From: Fastidiosibacter lacustris
GTDB taxonomy: Bacteria; Pseudomonadota; Gammaproteobacteria; Francisellales; Francisellaceae
NCBI RefSeq assembly: GCF_003428155.1
Contig: NZ_QLIR01000005.1
Span: 60,001 to 92,000 of the forward strand
Length of the DNA: 32,000 bases
Direction: 5' to 3'
The position numbers and the translations under genes are program-made. The notes under the pieces were generated by a model, which worked only from the letters and a program-made list of their open reading frames with translations, was not told the DNA's origin and made no database searches. This document shows, piece after piece, positions 6,013 through 31,316 of this stretch (positions are counted from its first letter, which is position 1; each line of letters begins with the position of its first letter).

Positions 6013-6672
6013 GTGCTTTATAACAACGTTATCTTTGACTTTGATTCAACCTTAATTCGTTTTGAATCACTTGAGCTTATTATGAAGAATTTACTAAATG
6101 GTGATGAAAATAAAATTAAGGCAATTGAAGGTTTAACTGAAGCAGGTATGAATGGTGAGATTAGCTTTAGAGAAAGTTTGGATCGACGATTACAGATAGC
6201 CAAGCCAACAAAAGCCGCATTAAACTGGTTTGCAGCTCAATATTGTCCGAGTGCGTTTACTTTTGGTATAGAGGCGCTTATTATCGATTTGCAGCGCATG
6301 GGTGTGGAAGTTTTTATTATTAGTGGCGGTTTTAAAGAGTTCATACTTCCTTTTTCTCAGACTTTACATATCAATCAAAACTATGTTTTTGCTGTTGAAC
6401 TCAATTGGGATGAACAAGGTGTTTTTAAGAGCCTTAATAACGATAACGGTTTTTGTGATTCTAAATTAGTTGGCGCACAAAAAATTAAGCATAAACTCAA
6501 AGGAAAAACAGTAGTTATAGGTGACGGATTTACGGATTTTGAACTCTATCGAGCAAGAATTGCAGATGACTTTATTGTCTATACTGAACACGTCAAACGC
6601 CGTAAAGTGATTAACTTGGCACCATATTATGCTAATTCAACTGAAGAATTAAGAGTCCTACTTCAACTTTAA
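6013..6672 (+). CDS. HAD-IB family hydrolase, phosphoserine-phosphatase-like (GTG start)
   Basis: HAD motif I FDFDSTL, motif II ISGG and motif IV GDGFTD, with a cap-domain insertion typical of the SerB/HAD-IB subfamily. SD AAGGA is upstream of the GTG. Substrate is not determinable from sequence. Confidence 0.7.
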   Translation: MLYNNVIFDFDSTLIRFESLELIMKNLLNGDENKIKAIEGLTEAGMNGEISFRESLDRRLQIAKPTKAALNWFAAQYCPSAFTFGIEALIIDLQRMGVEVFIISGGFKEFILPFSQTLHINQNYVFAVELNWDEQGVFKSLNNDNGFCDSKLVGAQKIKHKLKGKTVVIGDGFTDFELYRARIADDFIVYTEHVKRRKVINLAPYYANSTEELRVLLQL

Positions 6673-6762
6673 AGAAGTATTTTGACTCAAAAGAAGCCCA
6701 ATTTCATCATGTTCTAAGAAATCCATTTGAACTTAATTAGTTTTTTCACTACAATCTGAAGT

Positions 6763-6852
6763 TGCAACAGGGGTGCAAGCTTAACGTTTGCTGAGAAGGT
6801 CATTCCTAACCCTTTGTACCTGAACTAGTTAATACTAGCGTAGGAAGTTGTA
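6763..6852 (+). promoter_or_regulatory. TPP (thiamine pyrophosphate, THI-box) riboswitch aptamer
   Basis: Near-consensus core: caGGGGTGC...GCTGAGA...ACCCTTTGtACCTGAaCTaGTTAATaCTaGCGTAGGAAg. The P1 helix can form between 6763-6768 and 6847-6852. Located about 50 nt upstream of the next ORF on the same strand. Confidence 0.9.
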
Positions 6853-6873
6853 CCCTTTTCGTTATGGTTTGCA

Positions 6874-6900
6874 GCTTTCTATACTTAAATTATAGGAGGC
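6874..6900 (+). promoter_or_regulatory. Probable riboswitch expression platform: hairpin sequestering the Shine-Dalgarno sequence of the downstream ORF
   Basis: gctttctata (6874-6883) can pair with tataggaggc (6891-6900). This gives 10 bp including 2 G-U pairs and a 7-nt loop. The 3' arm contains the AGGAGG SD of the ORF starting at 6901/6904. Confidence 0.5.
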
Positions 6901-7524
6901 ATGATGGAATACATTGGTTATATTAGCATTAATATATCATTCGTTATTTATTGTACTTATTTCTTACCACAAATTATTTATAACCAGATTAAATGCCAAG
7001 CAGGATATATTAGTCATAGTAATCAAACACTTATGATTGTTGCAAATACGCTTGATCTTATATACGGTTTTGGTTTTAATTTGCAATGGCAATATCGTAC
7101 TGTCACGATGTCTATTTTGTTATGTTTACTATTTCAACAATGGCAGATATATAGAGATAGTCAGCAGAAAATATATCGATTTCATATTGTCATTTTAACA
7201 ATTGTTATTTTAGGTATAATATTTGCAATTTTCAATATATTAGGTCCTAAAGTATTACAAAAAATAGGATTTATAAGTATGTTTTGCTACGCAGTGCACT
7301 GGTTGCCACAAATCGTTAAAAATATAAAAGAAAAAAATGCCAGTGCTTTTAGTGTATGGTTTTTATTACTAAATATTATTGCTTTGCTTTGTGATGAAAT
7401 ATCAGCACTTAGTTTTGGATGGCCATTACCTAGTTTATTGAGTCCAATTTTAATTTTAAGTTTATTATTCATTGTGGTTGGTCAATATTACTACTACCAA
7501 CGCTTGAGAATGATTATTGATTAG
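6901..7524 (+). CDS. 7-TM membrane protein with two PQ-loop repeats (3+1+3 topology); candidate thiamine or thiamine-precursor transporter
   Basis: Seven hydrophobic segments. 'LPQI' motifs follow TM1 (YFLPQIIYNQIK) and TM5 (HWLPQIVKNIKEK), each then followed by the characteristic short loop and second helix of a PQ-loop/SWEET-type triple-helix bundle. Directly downstream of the TPP riboswitch. ATG 6904 has the better SD spacing. Confidence 0.75.
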   Translation: MMEYIGYISINISFVIYCTYFLPQIIYNQIKCQAGYISHSNQTLMIVANTLDLIYGFGFNLQWQYRTVTMSILLCLLFQQWQIYRDSQQKIYRFHIVILTIVILGIIFAIFNILGPKVLQKIGFISMFCYAVHWLPQIVKNIKEKNASAFSVWFLLLNIIALLCDEISALSFGWPLPSLLSPILILSLLFIVVGQYYYYQRLRMIID

Positions 7525-7618
7525 TACCAGTTCAGTGCTATATGTTGGATTTTAGTATACAAATGAATGAAAAACAGTATGCTGGCAACTAATCCTATTA
7601 AAATGGAAACGCAATAAT

Positions 7619-8773
7619 ATGGTTATTTCTGAAATAGAGCGTTATCGAGCAAGCAAAAAGGTTACCATCACTAGTATGTTTGTTAATACTTTATTAGCGG
7701 CATTAAAAATGGTCATTGGTTTGATTGGTCGATCACCCGCTTTGTTTGCAGATGGTATACATTCATTCTCAGATTTATTAAGTGACATCATGGTATTATT
7801 TGCCACCAAGCATGCCAATAAAGGGGCCGATTACAATCATCCTTATGGGCATGAACGTATAGAAACATTAGCGACAGTGGTGTTGTCAATTATGTTGATT
7901 ATGATTGCACTTCTTATTAGTTATCACTCTATACAAAATTGGTTTATAGGTGAGTTAATCATCCCTGATCAGTGGACCATTTACGCCGCTATTTTTTCAA
8001 TTGTGGCAAATGAAGGATTGTTTCGTTATATTATGGTGACAGCAAATCGGATTGGTTCAGATTTACTGCGTGCAAATGCGTGGCATAGCCGATCAGATAT
8101 GTGGTCATCTGTTGTGGTATTGATTGGATTAATTGGTACGACGTTAGGTGTTACGTGGATGGATTCACTGGCAGCAATTATTGTATCGATTATGATTGGG
8201 AAAATGGGTGTTGAATGGTGTTATAAAGCGTTATCTGAATTAGTCGATACTGGAGTTAATGAAGAGATATTACATAAAATTGAGGAAACAATTGCTAAAG
8301 TTGATGGTGTTAAAAGGTTTCACTGTTTGCGCACACGTAAGATGGCAGGACAGATCATTTTGGATGTACATGTTTTAGTTGATTCACACATAACAGCATC
8401 AGAAGGACACTATGTAGCAGAACATGTGCGTGGTGCATTAGCACTTAAAATTGAAAATATAAAAGATATCACGGTGCATGTGGATGTAGCAGAGCATCCA
8501 GAACAAATCGTTGATCCAAAAGACATGCCACCTAATCGCACGGAAATTATGCGCCAACTCGAAGTCTACCTAGTACAAAATCATCAAAATGTTAATTTAC
8601 ATCAAATTGAATTGTTTGTTTATTACTACTCTAAGAAGATTGAGTTATACTTATTGGCGCCAGCAGCTTGTAAGCGAGCGTTAGTGGATGCGAATCTTGA
8701 AAGCTTTAAGATTGAGGGTATGACAACAATTATTAAGCTTTTCATGTTGCATTCTGTGCAAGAAGAAAAATAA
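7619..8773 (+). CDS. Cation diffusion facilitator (CDF) family divalent metal efflux transporter with a ~90-aa C-terminal extension
   Basis: Six TMs with metal-site motifs HSFSDLLSD (TM2) and HSRSDMWSS (TM5), plus a cytoplasmic ZT_dimer-like domain (VDGVKRFHCLRTRKMAGQIILDVHVLVD). About 90 extra residues follow. Confidence 0.85.
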   Translation: MVISEIERYRASKKVTITSMFVNTLLAALKMVIGLIGRSPALFADGIHSFSDLLSDIMVLFATKHANKGADYNHPYGHERIETLATVVLSIMLIMIALLISYHSIQNWFIGELIIPDQWTIYAAIFSIVANEGLFRYIMVTANRIGSDLLRANAWHSRSDMWSSVVVLIGLIGTTLGVTWMDSLAAIIVSIMIGKMGVEWCYKALSELVDTGVNEEILHKIEETIAKVDGVKRFHCLRTRKMAGQIILDVHVLVDSHITASEGHYVAEHVRGALALKIENIKDITVHVDVAEHPEQIVDPKDMPPNRTEIMRQLEVYLVQNHQNVNLHQIELFVYYYSKKIELYLLAPAACKRALVDANLESFKIEGMTTIIKLFMLHSVQEEK

Positions 8774-8999
8774 GCTACCCAGCTTTACAAACCGATTTTA
8801 GCTACGCACGGGGCTTATGAGGTTCAAAGCTAAACAAACAAAAACTCATACGTTTCTTATCTTTGTAGGTGAATAGATGGGAAGTTAGGGTTTAGCAAGA
8901 TGGTTTTTTTAAATGCAAGCGGGTAAATAAATTTGTGTTCAGAGAAGACAATGGTGATAAATTGTAAAACTTAAGGTTATAGTAGGGATAAAAATAGCG

Positions 9000-10166
9000 A
9001 TGCATAATTTAATATTTGTATTTTTTTTGGTTTTTTTTGGTGCATCAGTTTTTGCAACTTTAGCACTTTATACACGTCAAGCAATCATTGTTGCCTATAT
9101 CGTTTTGGGTATAGTTGTTGGTCCTCATTGCTTAGGACTTATTAGTGACACAACAACTATTCAAGAGACCTCAGATATTGGTATTATGTTTTTGTTATTT
9201 TTGCTTGGTCTTAACCTTGAAATTAAAAGTATGATCAAAATGCTAGGTAAGGCGCTTTTTGTGTCTATTACCAGTAGCATTGTTTTTATTGTTGCAACAG
9301 TTGTGATTTGTCACGCTTTTGGTATTGGTGCTCAAGGCTTTATTATTGGAGCGGCTTTGATCTTCTCAAGCACAATTATCTGTTTGAAATTATTACCAAC
9401 GACGGCTTTACATCATAAACGATTGGGCGAACTGGTGATTGCAATTTTATTGGTTCAAGACTTAATAGCAATTTTGATGTTAACCTTTATTAGTCTTTGG
9501 TCATCACAAACAGAAAGCTTTAATTTATTCTCGCTTATAAAGCTTTTACTTGCATTGCCAGTATTGGGTGGAGTGGGGTATCTTGCTCAAAAGTACTTTT
9601 TGTTTAGTTTGTTTAGACGCTTTAGCCGCTTTCAGGAATATATTTTCTTATTATCGATTGGCTGGTGTATTGGAATGGCGCAACTTGCGATCGTATTTGG
9701 GCTATCTAATGAAATTGGTGCTTTTATTGCTGGTGTGATTGTTGCAAGTTCTCCGATTGCTAAATATATTTATGAGAACTTAAAGCCGCTTCGAGATTTC
9801 TTTTTAATTTTGTTTTTCTTCTCAGTGGGTGCTGGGTTTCAGATTGGGTTGTTAACATCTGTTTGGGGTGTGGTATTGGCATTGACTGTACTGATTTTAG
9901 TATTAAAACCCATCCTACATTTCGTCACATTATGGTTAGTACGTGAAACGCCAAAGGAATCGTTTGAAATTGGCATGCGGCTTGGTCAGGGCAGTGAGTT
10001 CTCATTGATGTTAATTTCATTAGCAACTACAGCAGGGGTTGCTACTAATAGCTCCGAAATTATTGTTGAGGCAGTAGCAATATTAAGCTTTATTGTATCG
10101 TCTTATATTGTTGTATTGACTTATCCAAGCCCAATTGCTGTTTCAGATCGATTACGACGTGATTAA
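9000..10166 (+). CDS. Monovalent cation:proton antiporter (CPA2/Kef-type membrane domain, no RCK domain)
   Basis: 388 aa, roughly 11-12 TMs, Na_H_exchanger-like pattern (GIMFLLFLLGLNLE, LLVQDLIAI, IGAFIAGV). Ends right after the membrane domain. Confidence 0.8.
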   Translation: MHNLIFVFFLVFFGASVFATLALYTRQAIIVAYIVLGIVVGPHCLGLISDTTTIQETSDIGIMFLLFLLGLNLEIKSMIKMLGKALFVSITSSIVFIVATVVICHAFGIGAQGFIIGAALIFSSTIICLKLLPTTALHHKRLGELVIAILLVQDLIAILMLTFISLWSSQTESFNLFSLIKLLLALPVLGGVGYLAQKYFLFSLFRRFSRFQEYIFLLSIGWCIGMAQLAIVFGLSNEIGAFIAGVIVASSPIAKYIYENLKPLRDFFLILFFFSVGAGFQIGLLTSVWGVVLALTVLILVLKPILHFVTLWLVRETPKESFEIGMRLGQGSEFSLMLISLATTAGVATNSSEIIVEAVAILSFIVSSYIVVLTYPSPIAVSDRLRRD

Positions 10167-10338: not shown

Positions 10339-11616
10339 TTATTTTTGAGACATGACAGTACGATTAAGTGCAATTTCCATGATATTGCAAGCTTTTTCTA
10401 ATTGTGCATCGGTTGTATTTAAAGGTGGAAGTAAACGTAAAACTTCTTTTTGTCTACCTGAGCTTAGCAAAATTAACCCCTCATCTAGTAAATTTTTAAT
10501 ATATACTTTTAACAAGTCTGGGTTCGGTGTGTTTTTATCGTTGATAAACTCAATACCAATCATTGCTCCAAGTCCACGAATATCACCAATAAAGTGATGC
10601 TTGAAGCGTTGAGCAATAAAAAACTCTCGTAAAGTTTGACCTATTGCTTGCGCTTTTTGGGCAAGGTTTTCTTCTTCAAATACTTCAAGTGAGGCAAGTG
10701 CTGCAGCGCAAGCAATAGGATTGCCTGAGTTCGTACCACCTAGCGATGCAGTAGGCAGTTTGTCAAATAATGATTTTCTAGCTGTTAACGCGCTAAGTGG
10801 TAAACCAGATGCTAATGATTTGCCCATCACTAAAATATCAGGAGCTACATGATAATGCTCCATAGCAAACATTTTACCAGTACGACAAAAGCCACTTTGG
10901 ATTTCATCGGCAATAAAAACAATACCATGTTGATCACATAATGTGCGTAGATATTGCATTGCTTCAATGCTTGCTGGAATAAAGCCACCTTCACCTAGCT
11001 GTGGTTCAATAATAATGGCTGCAATATTTTCAGCAGCCACCTGATTAGTAATTAAGTCTTGCCATTGAGATTTTAATTTCTCAATAGAAGTATGCACATT
11101 AGGATAAGCTAAGCGATAAATATTATTAAACAATTCACCAAAGCCGTATTTATATGGTTTAACTTTGGCTGTTAAACTCATACTCATAAATGTGCGCCCA
11201 TGAAAGGCGCCATCAAAGCAAATAATAGCAGAGCGCCCTGTTGAGAAGCGCGCAACTTTTATCGCATTTTCAACGGCTTCTGCACCGCTATTGCATAGCA
11301 TGGTTTGCTTGGGAAACTCCCCGGGTGTTATGCTGTTTAGCTTTTTTGCTAATTGAAGGTACGGTTCATGAACCATGATATGAAAACAAGGTTGAATGTA
11401 GTTTTGTGTTTGTTCAATGATGGCTTTAACTACTTTTGGATGGTTGTGACCAATATTCATTGAACCAATGCCTGCGGCAAAGTCGATATATTGTTTATCA
11501 TTTATATCGATGAGCACACTTCCTTGAGCTTTTTTAACGCAAAGGTGGGTGTTGTTGGCAAGTGCAAGTGGCACTTCACTTTGACGAATGTGCCATAGAC
11601 TATTATGACTATTCAT
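10339..11616 (-). CDS. Class-III PLP-dependent aminotransferase (GabT-like); by context a candidate 2-aminoadipate (or omega-amino acid) aminotransferase
   Basis: Motifs SGAEAVENAIKVAR, DEIQSGFCRTG and the PLP-lysine motif VMGKSLASG. Last gene of the four-gene minus-strand operon. Substrate specificity is inferred from context only. Confidence 0.85.
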   Translation of the reverse strand: MNSHNSLWHIRQSEVPLALANNTHLCVKKAQGSVLIDINDKQYIDFAAGIGSMNIGHNHPKVVKAIIEQTQNYIQPCFHIMVHEPYLQLAKKLNSITPGEFPKQTMLCNSGAEAVENAIKVARFSTGRSAIICFDGAFHGRTFMSMSLTAKVKPYKYGFGELFNNIYRLAYPNVHTSIEKLKSQWQDLITNQVAAENIAAIIIEPQLGEGGFIPASIEAMQYLRTLCDQHGIVFIADEIQSGFCRTGKMFAMEHYHVAPDILVMGKSLASGLPLSALTARKSLFDKLPTASLGGTNSGNPIACAAALASLEVFEEENLAQKAQAIGQTLREFFIAQRFKHHFIGDIRGLGAMIGIEFINDKNTPNPDLLKVYIKNLLDEGLILLSSGRQKEVLRLLPPLNTTDAQLEKACNIMEIALNRTVMSQK

Positions 11617-11625
11617 AAGTTTCCC

Positions 11626-12429
11626 TTAAGGATTGACGTTGGTACTTTCAAAGATTTTATCGGCAGAGGCAGCAACAAATCCTTGATAGAGTCTACCAGT
11701 ATGATCAGGATAACGTTTAGCGAACTCATAATAACAGCAAGGAATTTCTTTTTTGCCTTCAACAAAGTCAACTATGACCATTCCTGATTTTGTGCTGGAT
11801 TGCTCTAGTAACTCACCTGGTGTGCCTTTGATCTCACCACCCGAAGTATTAAGTGCAAAACCATGTTTCTTCAAGAAGTTATTGACCTCATATATTTCAT
11901 TAAACTGGTTCAAAGCGTTAATAAACACTGTAAAATGATTGGCTCTAAAGCCAAATACATAAAACCATGCAGCATATTCTGATTCAGCTAATAGCTTTTC
12001 ATAAGTTGGGTGACTTGGTTGACCCCAGCAATTACCAGCTGAAACAAGTTTTTCTCGATTTACTAAGAGTTTCGAGTCAATTTTATCAATGCAGGCTTTA
12101 ATAGTTTGTTGGGTAAATGGAGTAAATGATTCTAAAAGTAATTGACTAATAAAGATTTTTGGCTGCGTTGGATCTTTATGCTCATAGTGTTTTGCATAAA
12201 GCTTTTTAGTTTTAAAATGGTACTCTCCATTTTCAAAATACCCTTCCGCGATGAATGGTTTAGCTAATACTTCAATATCAATGCGTGGATCATTAATAGT
12301 GCGCAGTGCAATATGATCGTTAATCACTGAAGTGTTGTGATCGTAAAAAAGATTATAGATCTCTTGTACGTGTGGGTTTGCATCAACATATTGTTGCCAT
12401 AACCTTTCTAAAATTGCGATTTGAGACAT
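11626..12429 (-). CDS. DUF1338 family (VOC-fold, HglS/YdcJ-like) protein; candidate 2-oxoadipate dioxygenase/decarboxylase (2-hydroxyglutarate synthase)
   Basis: N-terminal DHIALRT (H-x3-R) motif, later NHFTV and YYEF elements, matching my recollection of DUF1338. Length fits the short (~270 aa) DUF1338 subgroup. Lies 3 nt downstream of an AmaB-type ALDH, the same neighbourhood as amaB/hglS in Pseudomonas putida. Confidence 0.65.
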   Translation of the reverse strand: MSQIAILERLWQQYVDANPHVQEIYNLFYDHNTSVINDHIALRTINDPRIDIEVLAKPFIAEGYFENGEYHFKTKKLYAKHYEHKDPTQPKIFISQLLLESFTPFTQQTIKACIDKIDSKLLVNREKLVSAGNCWGQPSHPTYEKLLAESEYAAWFYVFGFRANHFTVFINALNQFNEIYEVNNFLKKHGFALNTSGGEIKGTPGELLEQSSTKSGMVIVDFVEGKKEIPCCYYEFAKRYPDHTGRLYQGFVAASADKIFESTNVNP

Positions 12430-12432
12430 AAC

Positions 12433-13935
12433 TTAATCCTCGAGTGAAAATTTAATACCTTGAGCAAGTGGTAAGGAGTTGCTCCAATTGATGGTTACGG
12501 TTTGCCGACGCATATAGGTTTTCCAAGCATCAGATCCAGCCTCACGACCACCACCTGTATGTTTTTCCCCACCAAATGCGCCACCAATTTCAGCGCCTGA
12601 AGTGCCAATATTTATGTTGGCAATGCCGCAATCACTGCCAGCGCAAGACAAGAATTTTTCAGAGTGATCGATGCGTTGAGTAAAGATTGCCGAAGACAAA
12701 CCATGGTCAACTTGATTGTTGATAGAAATGGCTTCGTCAATGTTCTCAAATGGCATGATAAACAAAATTGGACAAAAATTTTCTTGGTTAACGATATCCC
12801 AATCAGGTTTCACTTCGATAATGGTTGGTTCAACGTAATTACCAGGTTTATTAATCACATTACCACCAAATAAAATGTTTCCACCTAGAGTTTTAGCACA
12901 CGCAACTGCTTTTTTATATACTTCAACTAAGTTTTGGTCGATTAATGGCCCCATTAAATTTTTGGTGTCAAGTGGGTCGCCTACCGTGATTTGTTTATAG
13001 GCGTTTTGTAAGCGCTTAATAACATCTTGATAGATGTTTTTATGCACTAGTAATCTCCGTAATGAGGTGCAACGCTGACCCGCTGTGCCAACTGCACCAA
13101 ATACTACAGCAGGAATGGCAAGCTTAAGGTCAGCTGATTCATCAATAATAGCTGCATTGTTGCCGCCTAGTTCAAGTAAAGATTTGCCAAAGCGTTTTGC
13201 CACTTGTGCGCCAATTTCACGCCCAACTTTGGTTGAACCTGTAAACGATAAAAGCGCAATACGCGTATCATTAACAAGTGCTTTAGAAACATCAATGCTT
13301 TTCGATACGACAGAACTAAACACATTTGGGAAGTTATATGCTTGAGTCACACGATCACAAATCTCTTGAACAGCTAAAGCACATAAAGGTGTTTTAGGTG
13401 ATGGATTCCAAACAACAGTGTTACCACAGATGGCAGCGATAAAAGCGTTCCATGACCAAACAGCAACTGGGAAATTGTAGGCTGATATTACACCAACAAC
13501 ACCTAGTGGATGCCATTGTTCAAACATTCTGTGATCAGGACGCTCTGAGTGCATTGTTTTGCCATAAAGCATGCGAGCTTGACCTACGGCAAGGTCTGCC
13601 ATATCTATCATTTCCTGCACTTCACCATCACCTTCTTGTTTAGATTTACCCATTTCAAGTGATATGAGACTGCCTAATTGATCTTTATTTTTTCTTAATT
13701 CTTCACCGATTAAGCGTACAAGTTCAGCACGCTTAGGTGCTGGAGTTTTACGCCATTTTAAAAATGCAGCATGAGCTTCTTGGATGGTTTGGTTTAGGTG
13801 GTTGAGTCCTAAGCTTGGCACCTTGGCTAAAATCTCATTATTGGCAGGATTATAGCTTTCAATATACTCACTTGTTTGATATTTGGAGGCATATTGTGTC
13901 AGTTTTTCAGTATAGCTGGTCATACAAGTTGTCAT
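12433..13935 (-). CDS. amaB: ALDH7 (antiquitin)-type aldehyde dehydrogenase: alpha-aminoadipic semialdehyde / piperideine-6-carboxylate dehydrogenase
   Basis: Catalytic blocks LELGGNNA and GTAGQRCTS. Long ALDH7-specific blocks: [31 protein letters not shown], and the C-terminus [64 protein letters not shown], which closely resembles the antiquitin C-terminus as I recall it. SD AGGAG lies 6 nt upstream. Confidence 0.88.
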
Positions 13936-13954
13936 TCATTTCTCCTACTTAGAT

Positions 13955-15115
13955 TTAAATCACTTCAAGTTTATTGTTTGCTGTACTTTTTGTGATTAAC
14001 TTTGGGCTTTTAATTCCATCAAGAAAGTTATAGCGGTAGTAGTGACCAAATCGGTTATCCATCATTTGGGTTAAGTTAATGTCTTCTTGTTTGGCAAATC
14101 CAGGTGCGAAGTACTTATGTTTGATAGCAAGGTCAATAGTAACACATATTCCACAAGCAGTGGTTAACTGAAGTGCACTCCATTTTTGACCAAAGGCTTC
14201 TTGAGAATGATACTTCTTAGCAAAATGGCGTTCATGGTATACACCATTAATCTTGCCTTCAACAGAAACATACACCAAAACAACGTCATCTTCAACGCGC
14301 GGGATGGAATTATTAAAAATCTCACATAGAAGCTCTTGTTTGTCTCTTAGTTTTAAGTCATTGATCAAAAAGCGTAATTTCTCACAATGTCCTGGATAGC
14401 GTACACTCTTATAATTAATATTGCGAACTTTTGCTTTGTATGTGTCTTTTAACGAGCCAATGCCACCAGATGTGTTAAAAGCTTCATAAGTCAAACCATC
14501 GATTTTAATGGTTTCCAAATCATCAAGTGGTTCAATAGTCACGTTTTTATAATCACGAATAGCTTCACATGGTTTAACATATTCATTGATTAGACCTTCA
14601 GTTGACCACGTAAGTGCGTATTGGAGAGGATGACTAATATTAACAGGTAGAGCACCAACACGCATTTTTACGGTTTCAGCTTCATCAAATTGTTTCACTA
14701 AATCATTGGTGACAACACTTATAAAGCCAGGCGCAAGTCCACATTGAGGTGCAAATACTTTATCGGTATTTTTCGCTAGTGTTTCAACATATTTAGTGGT
14801 TTCAACGTCTTCCGTTAAATCAAAGTAATGTGTATTACAAACTTTGGCAATTTCAGCGACTTTTTTAGTAAGGAAGTATGGAAGAGCTGCGGTAAGTGCA
14901 TGAATATCATGTTCTTGAACATAGCTTTTGACGTTTTCAGTGTTATTGATATCCAAAATACAGTGTTTGAGATTGTGAGCATTTTCACCAAGGTGTAGCT
15001 GCTTTCTATCTGCCTGAACATCGGCAATATGAATATGATAATCTTTGCTAGAAGCCAGAATTGCTCCTGTTAAAAGACCTACTCTGCCACTGCCAAAAAT
15101 TAATATATTGATCAT
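13955..15115 (-). CDS. Saccharopine-dehydrogenase-family NAD(P) oxidoreductase; probable L-lysine 6-dehydrogenase (LysDH) or saccharopine dehydrogenase
   Basis: N-terminal Rossmann IFGSGRVGLL. Central CGLAPGF and C-terminal EAFNTSGG...YKSVRYPGHCEK blocks are characteristic of the Sacchrp_dh_NADP/Sacchrp_dh_C family. Its size (386 aa) and pairing with amaB match bacterial lysDH-amaB pairs. SD AAGGAG is upstream. Confidence 0.7.
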   Translation of the reverse strand: MINILIFGSGRVGLLTGAILASSKDYHIHIADVQADRKQLHLGENAHNLKHCILDINNTENVKSYVQEHDIHALTAALPYFLTKKVAEIAKVCNTHYFDLTEDVETTKYVETLAKNTDKVFAPQCGLAPGFISVVTNDLVKQFDEAETVKMRVGALPVNISHPLQYALTWSTEGLINEYVKPCEAIRDYKNVTIEPLDDLETIKIDGLTYEAFNTSGGIGSLKDTYKAKVRNINYKSVRYPGHCEKLRFLINDLKLRDKQELLCEIFNNSIPRVEDDVVLVYVSVEGKINGVYHERHFAKKYHSQEAFGQKWSALQLTTACGICVTIDLAIKHKYFAPGFAKQEDINLTQMMDNRFGHYYRYNFLDGIKSPKLITKSTANNKLEVI

Positions 15116-18704: not shown

Positions 18705-19586
18705 GTGATTGTTGATGGCTTAAGCGTAATAGTTAAGCGTGATGATGTAATTCATCGATTATTTTCAGGGAATAAGGCATATAAACTCTATTGGTTGATT
18801 GACCATCTTAAATATCATCCAAGTCTAACTAAGATAGTCTCATTTGGTGGGGCACAGTCAAATTATATGTTAGCAGTGGCACAGTTTTGTCGGTTGAATC
18901 AACTGCAATTTGATTATTGGCTTAAGCCATTACCAAGAGCATTGAAAGACAACCCAAACGGAAATCTACGTGTAGCATGTAATTTGGGAATGAAAGTTTA
19001 TGAAATGGACTATTTAAATAAAGATAAGTTGATGGAAAATTATCGAAATAACTCTCAAGTACTGTTGCTTACCCAAGGGGGAGCGCAGCAAGAAGCTGAA
19101 GTTGGACTTAAAATTTGTGCGGATCACATCAATAATTATTTTGAAAATATCGCTGCAAGTAAGGGCAGTATTTTTATTGCCTCAGGTACGGGAGTAAGTG
19201 CGTTTTATTTGCGTAAACACCTAAAGAAATCTTATTTGCTTTACACCACACCATGTGTTGGAGATAAAGAATATTTATTAGCTCAAATGAAGTCACTTGC
19301 AAAGAATACTGGTGAGATGCCAATAATATTAGATGCAAAACGGAAATATCATTTCGGTCAATGTTATAAAGAGCATTTAGCAATGTATAATCACCTTAAA
19401 GTGCAAACTGGAATTGAGTTTGATTTATTGTATGACCCTTTGGGATGGCAAGTGCTTTTTGATCATTACCAACAGTTGCAAAAACCTATTATTTATGTTC
19501 ATTGTGGTGGTGTTACAGGTAATATAAGCATGTTAAAGCGGTATCAATATTTTTTAAAAAACAAAATAAGTCAAGGCTTTAACTAA
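18705..19586 (+). CDS. PLP-dependent enzyme of the D-cysteine desulfhydrase / ACC deaminase family (short ~300-aa subgroup)
   Basis: VKRDDVIHRLFSGNKAYKL (PLP-lysine motif KRDDL..SGNK.RKL), later GGAQSN and HCGG blocks. The first canonical start is GTG 18705, but family-like N-terminal residues (STPLFQE) are encoded in frame upstream of it (see findings). Confidence 0.75.
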   Translation: MIVDGLSVIVKRDDVIHRLFSGNKAYKLYWLIDHLKYHPSLTKIVSFGGAQSNYMLAVAQFCRLNQLQFDYWLKPLPRALKDNPNGNLRVACNLGMKVYEMDYLNKDKLMENYRNNSQVLLLTQGGAQQEAEVGLKICADHINNYFENIAASKGSIFIASGTGVSAFYLRKHLKKSYLLYTTPCVGDKEYLLAQMKSLAKNTGEMPIILDAKRKYHFGQCYKEHLAMYNHLKVQTGIEFDLLYDPLGWQVLFDHYQQLQKPIIYVHCGGVTGNISMLKRYQYFLKNKISQGFN

Positions 19587-26709: not shown

Positions 26710-28008
26710 CTATCTAAACCATGATTTTAGTTTGTTATTAAGTGCATTATTTAGTGCTTTTTCAATAATAGGTTGTAAGTTTTGTTGTAATTTCTGTTGG
26801 TTGATTTTAGCACTGAAATTTCCATTTTGGTAATTAAGGATATAGGGAATGTGTAAGCTAGGTTCGACTTGAACATTTAATAACAATGGATAATTAAAAT
26901 ATTCCTTGGACACATCAAACTTCCCTGTACCTGTTATGCTAAATTTAGGTGCAAGCCAACTGAGTCTCGTCGTTGTAATCATTGAGTCAACAAATTGACT
27001 CTGTACATTTAAAGTATTTAGCTGGGTATGTTGATTTGGATCTGCATTAAATTTATCGCTGTTTAAGATTGGCAATATTTGGTTTTTTAAGCTCTGAAAG
27101 GCGGTTTCAATTTCATCACCACTATTTAGTGCAGTGAGTAGTTTGTGAGTTGAGTCAGCAATACTATTTAAATTGATTCCGTTAAGCTTAGCACTATTGG
27201 CGTGGATATTGATATTACCTTGTAGTTTTTGAAGGTTATCTTGTTGAAGGTCGAAATTAATGTTGAATTGATTAAGTGTGAGTAAAAAACCTTTCATGTC
27301 AATAATTTTTTCAACAGCAATTTTTGGGGCTGAAAATTTACCTTCAGCAGAAAAATGAGGTTTTAGTTTTATTTGCTTGAGTGTACCTATTAGTTCTTCG
27401 CCATTAATATCAAGTGTAATGTTCTCAATATCAGTAACTTTATCGTTATCAGTGATATAAATTCTAGGAACTTTGAGAGACGTAGAGTGATTATTAATAG
27501 TAGTTTGTAATGTAATATCATCAAACTGAATTGTGTTTGAATATGGATTGAGCGCCATTTGGAAGTTAAAATCATTAAATTCATTGACAAAGCTCCCTTT
27601 AATATTATATTTCTGGTTTTTCTCGAGGACGTTAAGTGTAGGAATTAAAAATTTTATTTTAGTACCAAGTTTAACTTGTCCTTGTTCAAGATCAAGTGAC
27701 TTAATTGAGTTATTGGGATTTATAATAAGGTCAATAAAATTAACTTTAATGGTACCTTGTTGCCAATGACTGGTGAGGATGTTGTTGTTAGTGTTAATTG
27801 TAATATTTTGCCCATCAAGTTGCATTAACCATAAGTTAAATGAAAGCCTGCCATCAATAAGGATATGAACATTGTTGTTCTGACTAAGTTTATTATTAAC
27901 CCAGTTTTTGTAATCATTGGGATTAAAAATAAATTTCAACCAGATGAAAAATAGCAACAGAAGAAGCGTAATTGTAAGAAGGAGACTTAATATAAGTTTT
28001 TTAACCAT
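26710..28008 (-). CDS. AsmA family protein (short form)
   Basis: N-terminal TM followed by FNPNDYKNWVNNKLSQNNNVHILIDGRLSFNLW, which parallels the E. coli AsmA N-terminus (VNPNDFRDYM...L.LDG.L....WP). Asn-rich beta-taco-like repeats follow. ATG 28008 has an AAGGA SD. The ORF is open to 28038. Confidence 0.7.
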   Translation of the reverse strand: MVKKLILSLLLTITLLLLLFFIWLKFIFNPNDYKNWVNNKLSQNNNVHILIDGRLSFNLWLMQLDGQNITINTNNNILTSHWQQGTIKVNFIDLIINPNNSIKSLDLEQGQVKLGTKIKFLIPTLNVLEKNQKYNIKGSFVNEFNDFNFQMALNPYSNTIQFDDITLQTTINNHSTSLKVPRIYITDNDKVTDIENITLDINGEELIGTLKQIKLKPHFSAEGKFSAPKIAVEKIIDMKGFLLTLNQFNINFDLQQDNLQKLQGNINIHANSAKLNGINLNSIADSTHKLLTALNSGDEIETAFQSLKNQILPILNSDKFNADPNQHTQLNTLNVQSQFVDSMITTTRLSWLAPKFSITGTGKFDVSKEYFNYPLLLNVQVEPSLHIPYILNYQNGNFSAKINQQKLQQNLQPIIEKALNNALNNKLKSWFR

Positions 28009-28128
28009 GGTTATTCCTTTATCGTCAACTTTCAGCATGAAATTAACAGAATATGTTTGGCATCATGCACTATGTTTTTTATGATAGTCTGAATTATTGA
28101 CGAATATTGAGTTTACGCCAAGTTGATT

Positions 28129-29538: not shown

Positions 29539-29988
29539 ATGTCTAAGAAAAAAATCACTTTATCGAACAGGAAGCGTTTAAGTGAGTTACAGACTAAAGC
29601 GGTAAAAACAAACGCAGATGTTCGTCGTGAACAGATTCAGTCTATGCGTGAAATGCATGTTATGCCTGAAGGGAAGCTTGAGCTTGCAATTGAGCAGATG
29701 GTTGCGGATGTTGTATTTGAGTTGAATAACTTATATCGCCAGTGGAGTCAGCCGCTTGATTATAATCGTTATCGGTATAGCCCAAATGAACGTAATAGAA
29801 AGCTATTGAATGAGTTAAAGGTATTTTTAAATGAGATAGCGGATTGGCTTATGAGTAAAGGTATTCGTGGTGAGGAGTGCAGGGAAAGGTGTCAGGAAAT
29901 TGTTGATCGGATTTCTCAAGGTTTACGCATAGAAGGGATACCCGTTGGTCATTTACAGTTACATTCTGAAAAGAGACAGGAATTTTAA
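29539..29988 (+). CDS. Hypothetical protein (149 aa, predicted helical, highly charged); no family recognised
   Basis: Intact ORF in a gap between well-supported genes, ending 2 nt before the rlmB start. Composition is like neighbouring genes. No motif I can assign. Confidence 0.55.
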   Translation: MSKKKITLSNRKRLSELQTKAVKTNADVRREQIQSMREMHVMPEGKLELAIEQMVADVVFELNNLYRQWSQPLDYNRYRYSPNERNRKLLNELKVFLNEIADWLMSKGIRGEECRERCQEIVDRISQGLRIEGIPVGHLQLHSEKRQEF

Positions 29989-30788: not shown

Positions 30789-31316
30789 TTGACGATAGGT
30801 TTAAGGGAAAAGGCTGTGAAGTTTAGAAAATCTAGACCTATGCAATGGGTTGTTTTGATTCTTCTACTATTTATCTTTGTTGGCATTATGATTGAGAATC
30901 TGCATACCAACCATGAAAGTCAGTTTACACTTAATACCTCTCAACGTCAGGTTCAATTAGATTTAAATGCCTTGTTAGCATCCATTCAAATAAATAGTCA
31001 ACACAGTGAAAATTATCAAGTGGGCTATCATAATTTTGAACAAGGAAACTGTGAATTGGCATATAAACAGGTTCTGCCTTTTGCCAGAAGTGGTGAAACT
31101 AATGCTACTCTAGTGATTGGATTTATGTATGAGTTTGGTTGTGGTGTTAAAGATAGTGCTAAAAAAGCGGCACTTTGGTATTACAGTGGTATCAAACGTA
31201 ATACTTATAATAAGGTTCTAATTTTGCGTGGACTTCATGCTTATAACAACGGTGATTATAATATGGCGGCAGAATGGTTTAGAATGGCTAGTGAGTTAAG
31301 TGTTATAAAGGCGTAA
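30789..31316 (+). CDS. Membrane-anchored Sel1-like (SLR/TPR-like) repeat protein
   Basis: N-terminal TM ([16 protein letters not shown]). Sel1-type repeats are present: [43 protein letters not shown], then [15 protein letters not shown]. Start uncertain (TTG 30789, GTG 30816 or ATG 30840). Confidence 0.65.

Follow-up and report, generated by a model that had tools for sequence, protein, structure and literature searches.

A PQ-loop membrane protein under a TPP riboswitch in Fastidiosibacter lacustris: candidate founder of a family of bacterial vitamin B1 importers

A 32,000-nucleotide stretch of the Fastidiosibacter lacustris genome (contig NZ_QLIR01000005.1, positions 60,001 to 92,000; hereafter the window) carries a thiamine pyrophosphate (TPP) riboswitch directly upstream of a gene for a seven-helix, double PQ-loop membrane protein. 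The evidence on this locus, all of it computational, makes it very likely that the locus is a single-gene thiamine-acquisition unit in which a PQ-loop carrier is placed under a TPP OFF switch; the substrate, the direction of transport and the trapping of the substrate are what we infer. We are highly confident that the substrate belongs to the thiamine family, and within that class intact thiamine is somewhat favored, the pyrimidine moiety is a minority possibility and phosphorylated forms are improbable. It is likely that the protein is the founding example of a bacterial B1 importer family of the seven-helix PQ-loop/SWEET fold that takes up thiamine and/or its aminopyrimidine moiety and, as part of the same reading, that this family is restricted to Fastidiosibacteraceae-like and Legionellaceae-like gammaproteobacteria. 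A new protein family has probably been recruited to the TPP regulon as a B1 importer.

When the window was searched against Rfam with cmscan, the only match above threshold was to the TPP riboswitch model RF00059 at positions 6759-6863 on the plus strand (70.1 bits compared to a gathering score of 54.3; E 4.8e-12). The match spans model positions 1-105 of 105, so that the aptamer is full-length. An earlier note on this DNA, made by eye, had described a near-consensus THI-box aptamer upstream of the open reading frame; this was borne out, and the strings GGGGTGC, GCTGAGA, ACCCTTTGTACCTGA and GCGTAGGAA that it quoted were all read in the window sequence. Its aptamer start at 6763 gives way to the Rfam start at 6759, and its spacing of about 50 nucleotides becomes 40 nucleotides between the end of the Rfam match and the likely start codon. 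The ligand-contacting motifs, CUGAGA (6792-6797) in the pyrimidine-sensor arm and ACCUGA (6820-6825) and GCG (6839-6841) in the pyrophosphate-sensor arm, are invariant among the intact orthologous aptamers and are mutated in the decayed copies of loci L007 and L033. Among eight aptamers found upstream of this gene family, three pairs of the P5 stem show compensatory changes and the remaining pairs are invariant, and this covariation supports the aptamers. The window RNA is an ordinary member of RF00059 and unremarkable as such; the difference lies in the gene that it regulates.

Homologues of the window protein were collected by a direct search (18 sequences), a profile search (296 sequences) and an exhaustive comparison with cluster representatives (99 clusters, formed at 50% identity, at E<=1e-30). 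Nearly all members are 200-230 amino acids long and come from Fastidiosibacteraceae-like or Legionellaceae-like bacteria. In the 45 loci examined, a THI-box at or above the gathering score was found at 12 distinct loci and one more was 0.7 bit under it (L031, 53.6 bits); they are distributed over both deep clades and four different neighborhoods. In the Fastidiosibacteraceae-like clade (55-71% identity), an above-threshold THI-box lies directly upstream of the gene at nine loci: the window, L001, L002, L003, L005, L006, L010, L011 and L004, the last being the same Caedibacter locus as L022. These nine represent the window, four Cysteiniphilum species, two metagenome-assembled genomes, Caedibacter taeniospiralis and Facilibium. 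THI-boxes were also found in L037 (71.7 bits), where the PQ-loop protein is 41% identical and its gene lies between a rimI-like gene and prs, in L041 (59.8 bits) of the Legionellaceae-like clade, whose members are approximately 30% identical to the window protein, and in L043 (62.7 bits). No THI-box was found before the PQ-loop gene in L008, L009 (Fangia), L035 or L039. In a neighbor-joining tree, members with a THI-box fell into both deep clades, and no gene other than the PQ-loop gene is common to the THI-box contexts. The earlier note had asked whether orthologues in related genomes also sit behind THI-boxes; orthologues do, and so do relatives of 30-40% identity in unrelated contexts.

A link to thiamine was also found at the level of gene coupling. 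In L038 and L040 the PQ-loop gene is preceded, directly or with an overlap at its start, by a TenA gene (138.7 and 131.1 bits to TIGR04306, respectively, compared to a cut-off of 130), and in L044 the overlap between the PQ-loop gene and a TenA-family gene (114 bits) is 4 nucleotides. The L044 PQ-loop protein shares only 44% identity with the L038 and L040 proteins, and its gene is flanked by different genes; identity between the TenA-linked members and the window protein is no more than 31-35%. Judged by these overlaps, the PQ-loop gene is translationally coupled to TenA, a thiamine-pyrimidine salvage enzyme, in two divergent lineages. The TenA coupling is a second, independent thiamine link.

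The wider gene order at the TenA loci was recorded as well. In both L040 (2017-5127) and L038 (2347-4702) a gene for a 314-319 amino acid protein with no Pfam or NCBIfam match is followed by TenA and then by the PQ-loop gene, and L040 alone has, after the PQ-loop gene, a further and divergent TENA_THI-4 paralogue (43.7 bits to TIGR04306). This paralogue could be a TenA of the formylaminopyrimidine type, and the 314-319 amino acid protein may belong to the same salvage module.

Several loci differ from the common arrangement. Decayed THI-boxes precede intact PQ-loop genes in L007 (2836-2920; Cysteiniphilum halobium) and L033 (3868-3935), with both ligand-sensing arms mutated; the decayed core motifs read GCUUGAGA and CUUUGA in the former and GCUAAUGAGA, CCCUGA and GCGUGGAAAG in the latter, and sister species keep the aptamer unchanged. 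Comparison of these sequences suggests repeated loss of regulation with retention of the transporter, which possibly is then expressed constitutively. In L043 (3840-6665) the THI-box is followed by a PQ-loop gene that overlaps the start of a transketolase gene, apparently an unusual case of a TPP-dependent enzyme sharing an operon with a TPP-riboswitch-controlled gene. In L045 (2886-4657) the gene order is xseB, ispA, PQ-loop, and no THI-box was found in the locus. The corresponding operon of E. coli is xseB-ispA-dxs, and by analogy with that order the PQ-loop gene would sit in place of the gene for the TPP-dependent 1-deoxy-D-xylulose-5-phosphate synthase. Other neighbors in the Legionellaceae-like clade are genes for M23 peptidase, BatD, urocanase and SSB, and ispA; M23 peptidase, BatD, urocanase and SSB were dropped as clues from context, as they have no link to thiamine.

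The regulated open reading frame (6901-7524, plus strand) encodes 207 amino acids. The second ATG, at 6904, is the more plausible start (206 amino acids) because of the AGGAGG at 6894-6899, and the identical database protein, WP_116963695.1 of F. lacustris, also has 206 amino acids; it is annotated only as 'PQ-loop repeat-containing protein'. The sole Pfam match above threshold was PF04193 (PQ-loop), at 51.7 bits compared to a cut-off of 22 and in two stretches. The AlphaFold2 model, built with 14 homologues (pLDDT 89, pTM 0.83), arranges seven long helices as 3+1+3, and two short extra helices carry the PQ-loop motifs. The seven helices, the 3+1+3 layout and the 'LPQI..N.K' motifs after the first and fifth transmembrane helices (TM1 and TM5) had been read by eye before, and the Pfam match and the model agree with that reading. 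In contrast, the view that full-length seven-helix PQ-loop proteins are mostly eukaryotic calls for some qualification: bacterial ones are not that rare, and this family alone forms 99 clusters.

In Foldseek searches against the PDB, OsSWEET2b (the top match), cystinosin and the KDEL receptor (5ctg, 8dyp and 7zk1) were matched with probability 1.00 and a TMq of 0.55-0.72, the values for OsSWEET2b and cystinosin being 0.65-0.72. When the family profile was compared with all PDB sequences, cystinosin ranked first (E 2.8e-5), followed by SemiSWEETs. No match to MtN3_slv (PF03083) was found in Pfam at E<=10; NCBIfam gave sub-threshold matches only, to SemiSWEET_2 (25 bits compared to a cut-off of 80) and to cystine-transporter models. 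No match above threshold was found to the Pfam and NCBIfam models for ThiT, ThiW, ThiBPQ, ThiXYZ, YkoEDC, CytX or ThiV. Across 219 family members the most conserved positions are the two PQ motifs (P23-Q24 and P136-Q137, 99-100%) and two pseudo-symmetric aspartates, D52 in TM2 and D165 in TM6, together with the aromatic residues Y17, Y55, W63, Y65 and W174 and several glutamines and asparagines. Such an acidic, aromatic-rich site would fit a cationic heteroaromatic ligand such as thiamine or aminomethylpyrimidine, with D52 and D165 as the putative cation-binding residues.

The leader between the aptamer and the gene was folded to see how the two are connected. The minimum free energy fold of 6759-6920 (-40.2 kcal/mol) holds the complete aptamer; in it, the helix 6874-6883/6891-6900 buries the Shine-Dalgarno sequence (SD) and the helix 6857-6865/6901-6909 buries both ATGs. 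When the aptamer AGGAAG was forced onto the downstream CUUUCU in a constrained fold, the energy was -39.8 kcal/mol, 13 base pairs formed between 6840-6852 and 6870-6882, and the SD was free. In the aptamer-forming ensemble, the probability of the SD being unpaired was 0.06-0.25. These two near-isoenergetic, mutually exclusive folds share the aptamer 3' strand and point to a translational OFF switch of the E. coli thiM type, and the window leader is, as modeled, such a switch. A transcription-termination mechanism was rejected, as no terminator-like site occurs within 6600-7700. In the aligned orthologous leaders the GTAGGAAGT strand is invariant, and the CUUUCU/CUUCCU element and the purine-rich SD are conserved. 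The L043 leader has a CCUCCGC element that faces GCGGAGG and GGAGGAG, analogous to the anti-SD of the window, and the same two-fold logic is visible in the L043, L010 and L001 leaders. The elements of the locus are listed in Table 1.

Table 1. Elements of the riboswitch-controlled PQ-loop locus in the window
Element	Position	Strand	Basis
Sigma-70-like promoter candidate, TTGAAC-17 nucleotides-TACAAT	6727..6755	+	Consensus scan, 9/12 matches; ends 4 nucleotides before the aptamer
TPP riboswitch aptamer (THI-box)	6759..6863	+	RF00059 full-model match, conserved upstream of orthologues, P5 compensatory changes
Aptamer 3' strand GUAGGAAGUUGUA, putative switching segment	6840..6852	+	Constrained fold pairs it with the anti-SD
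Leader segment predicted to cover the two possible start codons (6901-6909) by pairing in the OFF fold	6857..6865	+	Minimum free energy structure
Putative anti-SD (sequestor) strand UGCAGCUUUCUAUA	6870..6883	+	Pairs with the SD region in the minimum free energy fold
Shine-Dalgarno AGGAGG	6894..6899	+	Read from sequence
Gene for a membrane protein with seven helices and two PQ-loops; candidate importer of thiamine or its pyrimidine moiety	6904..7524	+	Open reading frame, PF04193 in two stretches, AlphaFold2, Foldseek
First PQ-loop motif LPQIIYNQIK (residues 22-31), after TM1	6964..6993	+	P23, Q24 and N28 at least 96% conserved in 219 members
Second PQ-loop motif LPQIVKNIKEK (residues 135-145), after TM5	7303..7335	+	P136 and Q137 99%, N141 91% conserved in 219 members

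The promoter candidate is proposed for its position, since sites of this kind are no more numerous in the region than in shuffles; TACAAT/TATAAT-like boxes occur at the same place in L004 and L010. The window switch resembles the SD-sequestering TPP riboswitch of the thiM type in having a full-length aptamer with all conserved motifs, no terminator, an anti-SD complementary to both the aptamer 3' strand and the SD, and a predicted OFF state at high TPP. It differs from it in controlling a PQ-loop protein and not a thi enzyme or a known transporter. One relative has a different layout: in L041 (3905-4013) the expression platform is very compact, with an SD-like GGAAG inside the aptamer 3' strand and the ATG 5 nucleotides on, and by its sequence ligand binding would directly occlude the ribosome site.

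The way in which the locus may work follows from these elements. The leader RNA probably begins just downstream of the promoter-like site at 6727-6755 and would fold into the aptamer that binds TPP. At high TPP levels, the occupied aptamer would retain its 3' strand (6840-6852), leaving the anti-SD (6870-6883) free to pair with the SD (6894-6899); a second helix would cover the start codons, so that the ribosome would be excluded and translation turned off. When TPP is scarce, the aptamer 3' strand would pair with the anti-SD, the SD would be exposed and the protein made. An OFF switch implies that the protein is wanted at low TPP, which argues for an importer rather than an exporter. The protein would then be an inner-membrane seven-helix PQ-loop (SWEET-fold) carrier importing a substrate of the thiamine family by alternating access, and in this host the substrate would most likely be intact thiamine, trapped afterwards by phosphorylation to TPP.

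In F. lacustris and 'Ca. Nebulobacter yamunensis' the thiamine pathway has been reported as 'likely absent' and it was stated that 'no corresponding transporter was annotated' (PMC9837558). A host reported to lack the pathway that still keeps a TPP sensor controlling this membrane protein fits uptake of intact thiamine followed by phosphorylation. Import of thiamine, hydroxymethylpyrimidine (HMP) or thiazole had been suggested by the earlier note, and import of a thiamine-family compound is now supported by the recurrence of the THI-box, by the TenA coupling and by the reported absence of the pathway, through which the function is deduced. The TenA coupling favors a pyrimidine substrate in the lineages that show it, and the reported pathway absence favors intact thiamine in this host; a carrier recognizing the shared 4-amino-2-methylpyrimidine moiety would reconcile the two.

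Several observations weigh against a thiamine importer under a translational switch. Characterized PQ-loop and SWEET proteins carry amino acids or sugars and not vitamins. Most of the sampled Legionellaceae-like loci (approximately 17) have neither a THI-box nor a nearby thiamine gene, and no gene for a TPK, ThiK or ThiL kinase was seen adjoining the PQ-loop gene in any locus. The TenA coupling points to the pyrimidine moiety over intact thiamine, and the published absence of the pathway is a coarse KAAS pathway call (PMC9837558). The energy gap between the two leader folds comes from a model calculation. Between the PQ-loop gene and the downstream CDF and Na+/H+ exchanger genes no terminator was detected, so that co-transcription is possible.

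These points bear differently on the explanations that compete with import of intact thiamine. That the protein instead imports the pyrimidine moiety or breakdown products (HMP, 4-amino-5-aminomethyl-2-methylpyrimidine or its N-formyl form), from which thiamine would be rebuilt via TenA, ThiD and ThiE, is a minority possibility. TenA, a thiaminase II/aminopyrimidine aminohydrolase, is coupled to the gene in L038, L040 and L044, with the L040 gene lying between two TenA-family paralogues, and it was from clustering with TenA that comparative genomics predicted the pyrimidine transporters ThiXYZ, CytX and YkoEDC. The putative pocket residues are moreover conserved family-wide, which suggests one substrate class for the whole family. 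Against this, the published analysis gives the thiamine pathway of F. lacustris as likely absent, and only with ThiD, ThiE and a source of thiazole could a cell make use of a pyrimidine. No thiamine enzyme, TenA or other thi gene was found in the window and none was seen in any Fastidiosibacteraceae-like locus, and at the low identity of the TenA-linked members to the window protein (31-35%), specificity may differ. It is quite improbable that thiamine monophosphate (TMP) or TPP is taken up from the cytosol of a eukaryotic host. Such uptake would suit the intracellular lifestyle of the group, since the family does not extend beyond Fastidiosibacteraceae-like and Legionellaceae-like bacteria, of which many are endosymbiotic or intracellular; most thiamine in host cytosol is TPP, and the lack of an adjacent kinase gene in every locus would agree with it. 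The conserved charges within the membrane are, however, acidic (D52 and D165) and unfavorable for a diphosphate anion, F. lacustris is also free-living in culture, and the compact SWEET-fold cavity would be small for TPP.

A role with no relation to thiamine, as an amino-acid or sugar carrier or as an exporter, with a riboswitch that is incidental or serves the downstream genes, is improbable. It would accord with the cystine, basic amino acids or sugars carried by the characterized relatives, with the lack of thiamine context in most Legionellaceae-like members and with the absence of a terminator before the CDF and Na+/H+ exchanger genes in the window. What speaks against it is that the THI-box occurs in four unrelated neighborhoods in which the PQ-loop gene is the sole shared gene, that the TenA coupling is independent evidence, and that the leader is built to stop translation at high TPP, the opposite of what an exporter needs. 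The CDF and Na+/H+ exchanger genes were rejected as the real target of the switch, since in L037, L041 and L043, where a THI-box is also present, they do not occur. Least probable of all, and rejected here, is that the protein is a divergent member of PnuC/PnuT and so a thiamine transporter of a known kind. The published view of a fold common to Pnu, SWEET and PQ-loop proteins (Feng and Frommer 2016, as cited in PMC5972207) would allow such kinship, and the earlier note had proposed a possible distant relation to PnuT. That proposal found no support in sequence or structure: there was no match to NMN_transporter (PF04973) in Pfam even at E<=10, no PnuC chain among the PDB sequence matches at E<=10, and no PnuC among the 50 Foldseek PDB rows listed, in which a probability above 0.9 was reached only by SWEET, cystinosin and the KDEL receptor. 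The window protein has both PQ motifs, which define the PQ-loop family, and its nearest solved structures are cystinosin and SWEET. As for the models that the earlier note had named for comparison, the open reading frame scores as PQ-loop and not as NMN_transporter (PnuC), MtN3_slv or a known thiamine-transporter family.

Compared with known transporters, the putative importer resembles cystinosin, PQLC2 and Ypq1 (PF04193, LCT family, TC 2.A.43), with which it shares the two PQ-loop repeats and the seven-helix 3+1+3 fold; cystinosin is the best PDB match by sequence profile, and the Foldseek TMq reaches 0.72. These proteins differ in being only approximately 14-17% identical and in exporting cystine or basic amino acids from eukaryotic lysosomes or vacuoles, whereas the window protein is bacterial, has no luminal domain and occurs in a context that points to a vitamin-B1-related substrate and to uptake. 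SWEET and SemiSWEET proteins (MtN3_slv) share the triple-helix-bundle fold, with OsSWEET2b as the top Foldseek match and weak SemiSWEET sequence matches; in contrast to them, the window protein has no MtN3_slv Pfam match and its context is thiamine and not sugar. PnuT is the probable functional analogue, being a small vitamin carrier of related fold that is often under a THI-box and whose substrate is trapped by phosphorylation. It differs in having no PQ motifs, and neither sequence similarity nor top-ranking structural similarity to the window protein was detected. The predicted pyrimidine-moiety transporters ThiXYZ (ABC), CytX (NCS1), YkoEDC (ECF-like) and ThiV (SSS) are alike in the kind of evidence, an upstream THI-box and/or clustering with tenA, and different in belonging to unrelated families, none of which is matched by the window protein. 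No literature linking PQ-loop or SemiSWEET proteins with TPP riboswitches was found by full-text searching. The sole trace is a passing remark in a 2018 survey on a three-helix SemiSWEET beside a thiamin pyrophosphokinase gene in Legionella cherrii, in which a riboswitch is not mentioned (PMC5972207); that SemiSWEET is a different protein from the PQ-loop protein of the window.

The known uptake systems for thiamine are probably not the full set, and many B1 auxotrophs lack a recognizable transporter. The present reading offers a candidate function for a family of at least about 100 sequence clusters labeled only 'PQ-loop repeat-containing protein'. If it is true, it would fill the published gap of 'no thiamine transporter annotated' in Fastidiosibacter and 'Ca. 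Nebulobacter', a model pair of a free-living and an endosymbiotic bacterium. It would also be the first assignment of a physiological substrate to a prokaryotic PQ-loop protein and of a vitamin substrate to the PQ-loop branch, adding a vitamin to the sugars and amino acids known to be carried by proteins of the PQ-loop/SWEET fold. In that case this architecture would have been put to use for B1 twice independently, the parallel case being PnuT, whose fold is related. Members of the family are found among intracellular and emerging pathogens (Cysteiniphilum, Legionellaceae), and the family thus bears on the prediction of auxotrophy from metagenomes and on the design of culture media. The hypothesis is directly testable by standard E. 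coli complementation and reporter assays.

In the window, the genes upstream of the riboswitch are hfq, hflX, hflK, hflC and a SerB-like HAD phosphatase gene, and those downstream of the PQ-loop gene encode a CDF cation-efflux protein and a Na+/H+ exchanger. As a possible thiamine-phosphate phosphatase partner, the HAD/SerB-like gene (6013-6672) was set aside: its place is ahead of both the promoter and the riboswitch, and it is not conserved beside orthologues. The order PQ-loop, CDF, Na+/H+ exchanger (7524-10166) is conserved across the Fastidiosibacteraceae-like clade. Further along, on the minus strand, genes for a class-III aminotransferase, an HGLS-family 2-oxoadipate dioxygenase/decarboxylase, an aldehyde dehydrogenase and a saccharopine dehydrogenase (10339-15115) form a cluster that looks like a lysine-catabolism operon. 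The open reading frames 18705-19586, 26710-28038, 29539-29988 and 30789-31316 (149-442 amino acids) have no Pfam match at E<=1e-5. The Hfq protein (2236-2613) has 125 amino acids, of which only residues 7-68 form the Hfq domain, leaving a long C-terminal extension.

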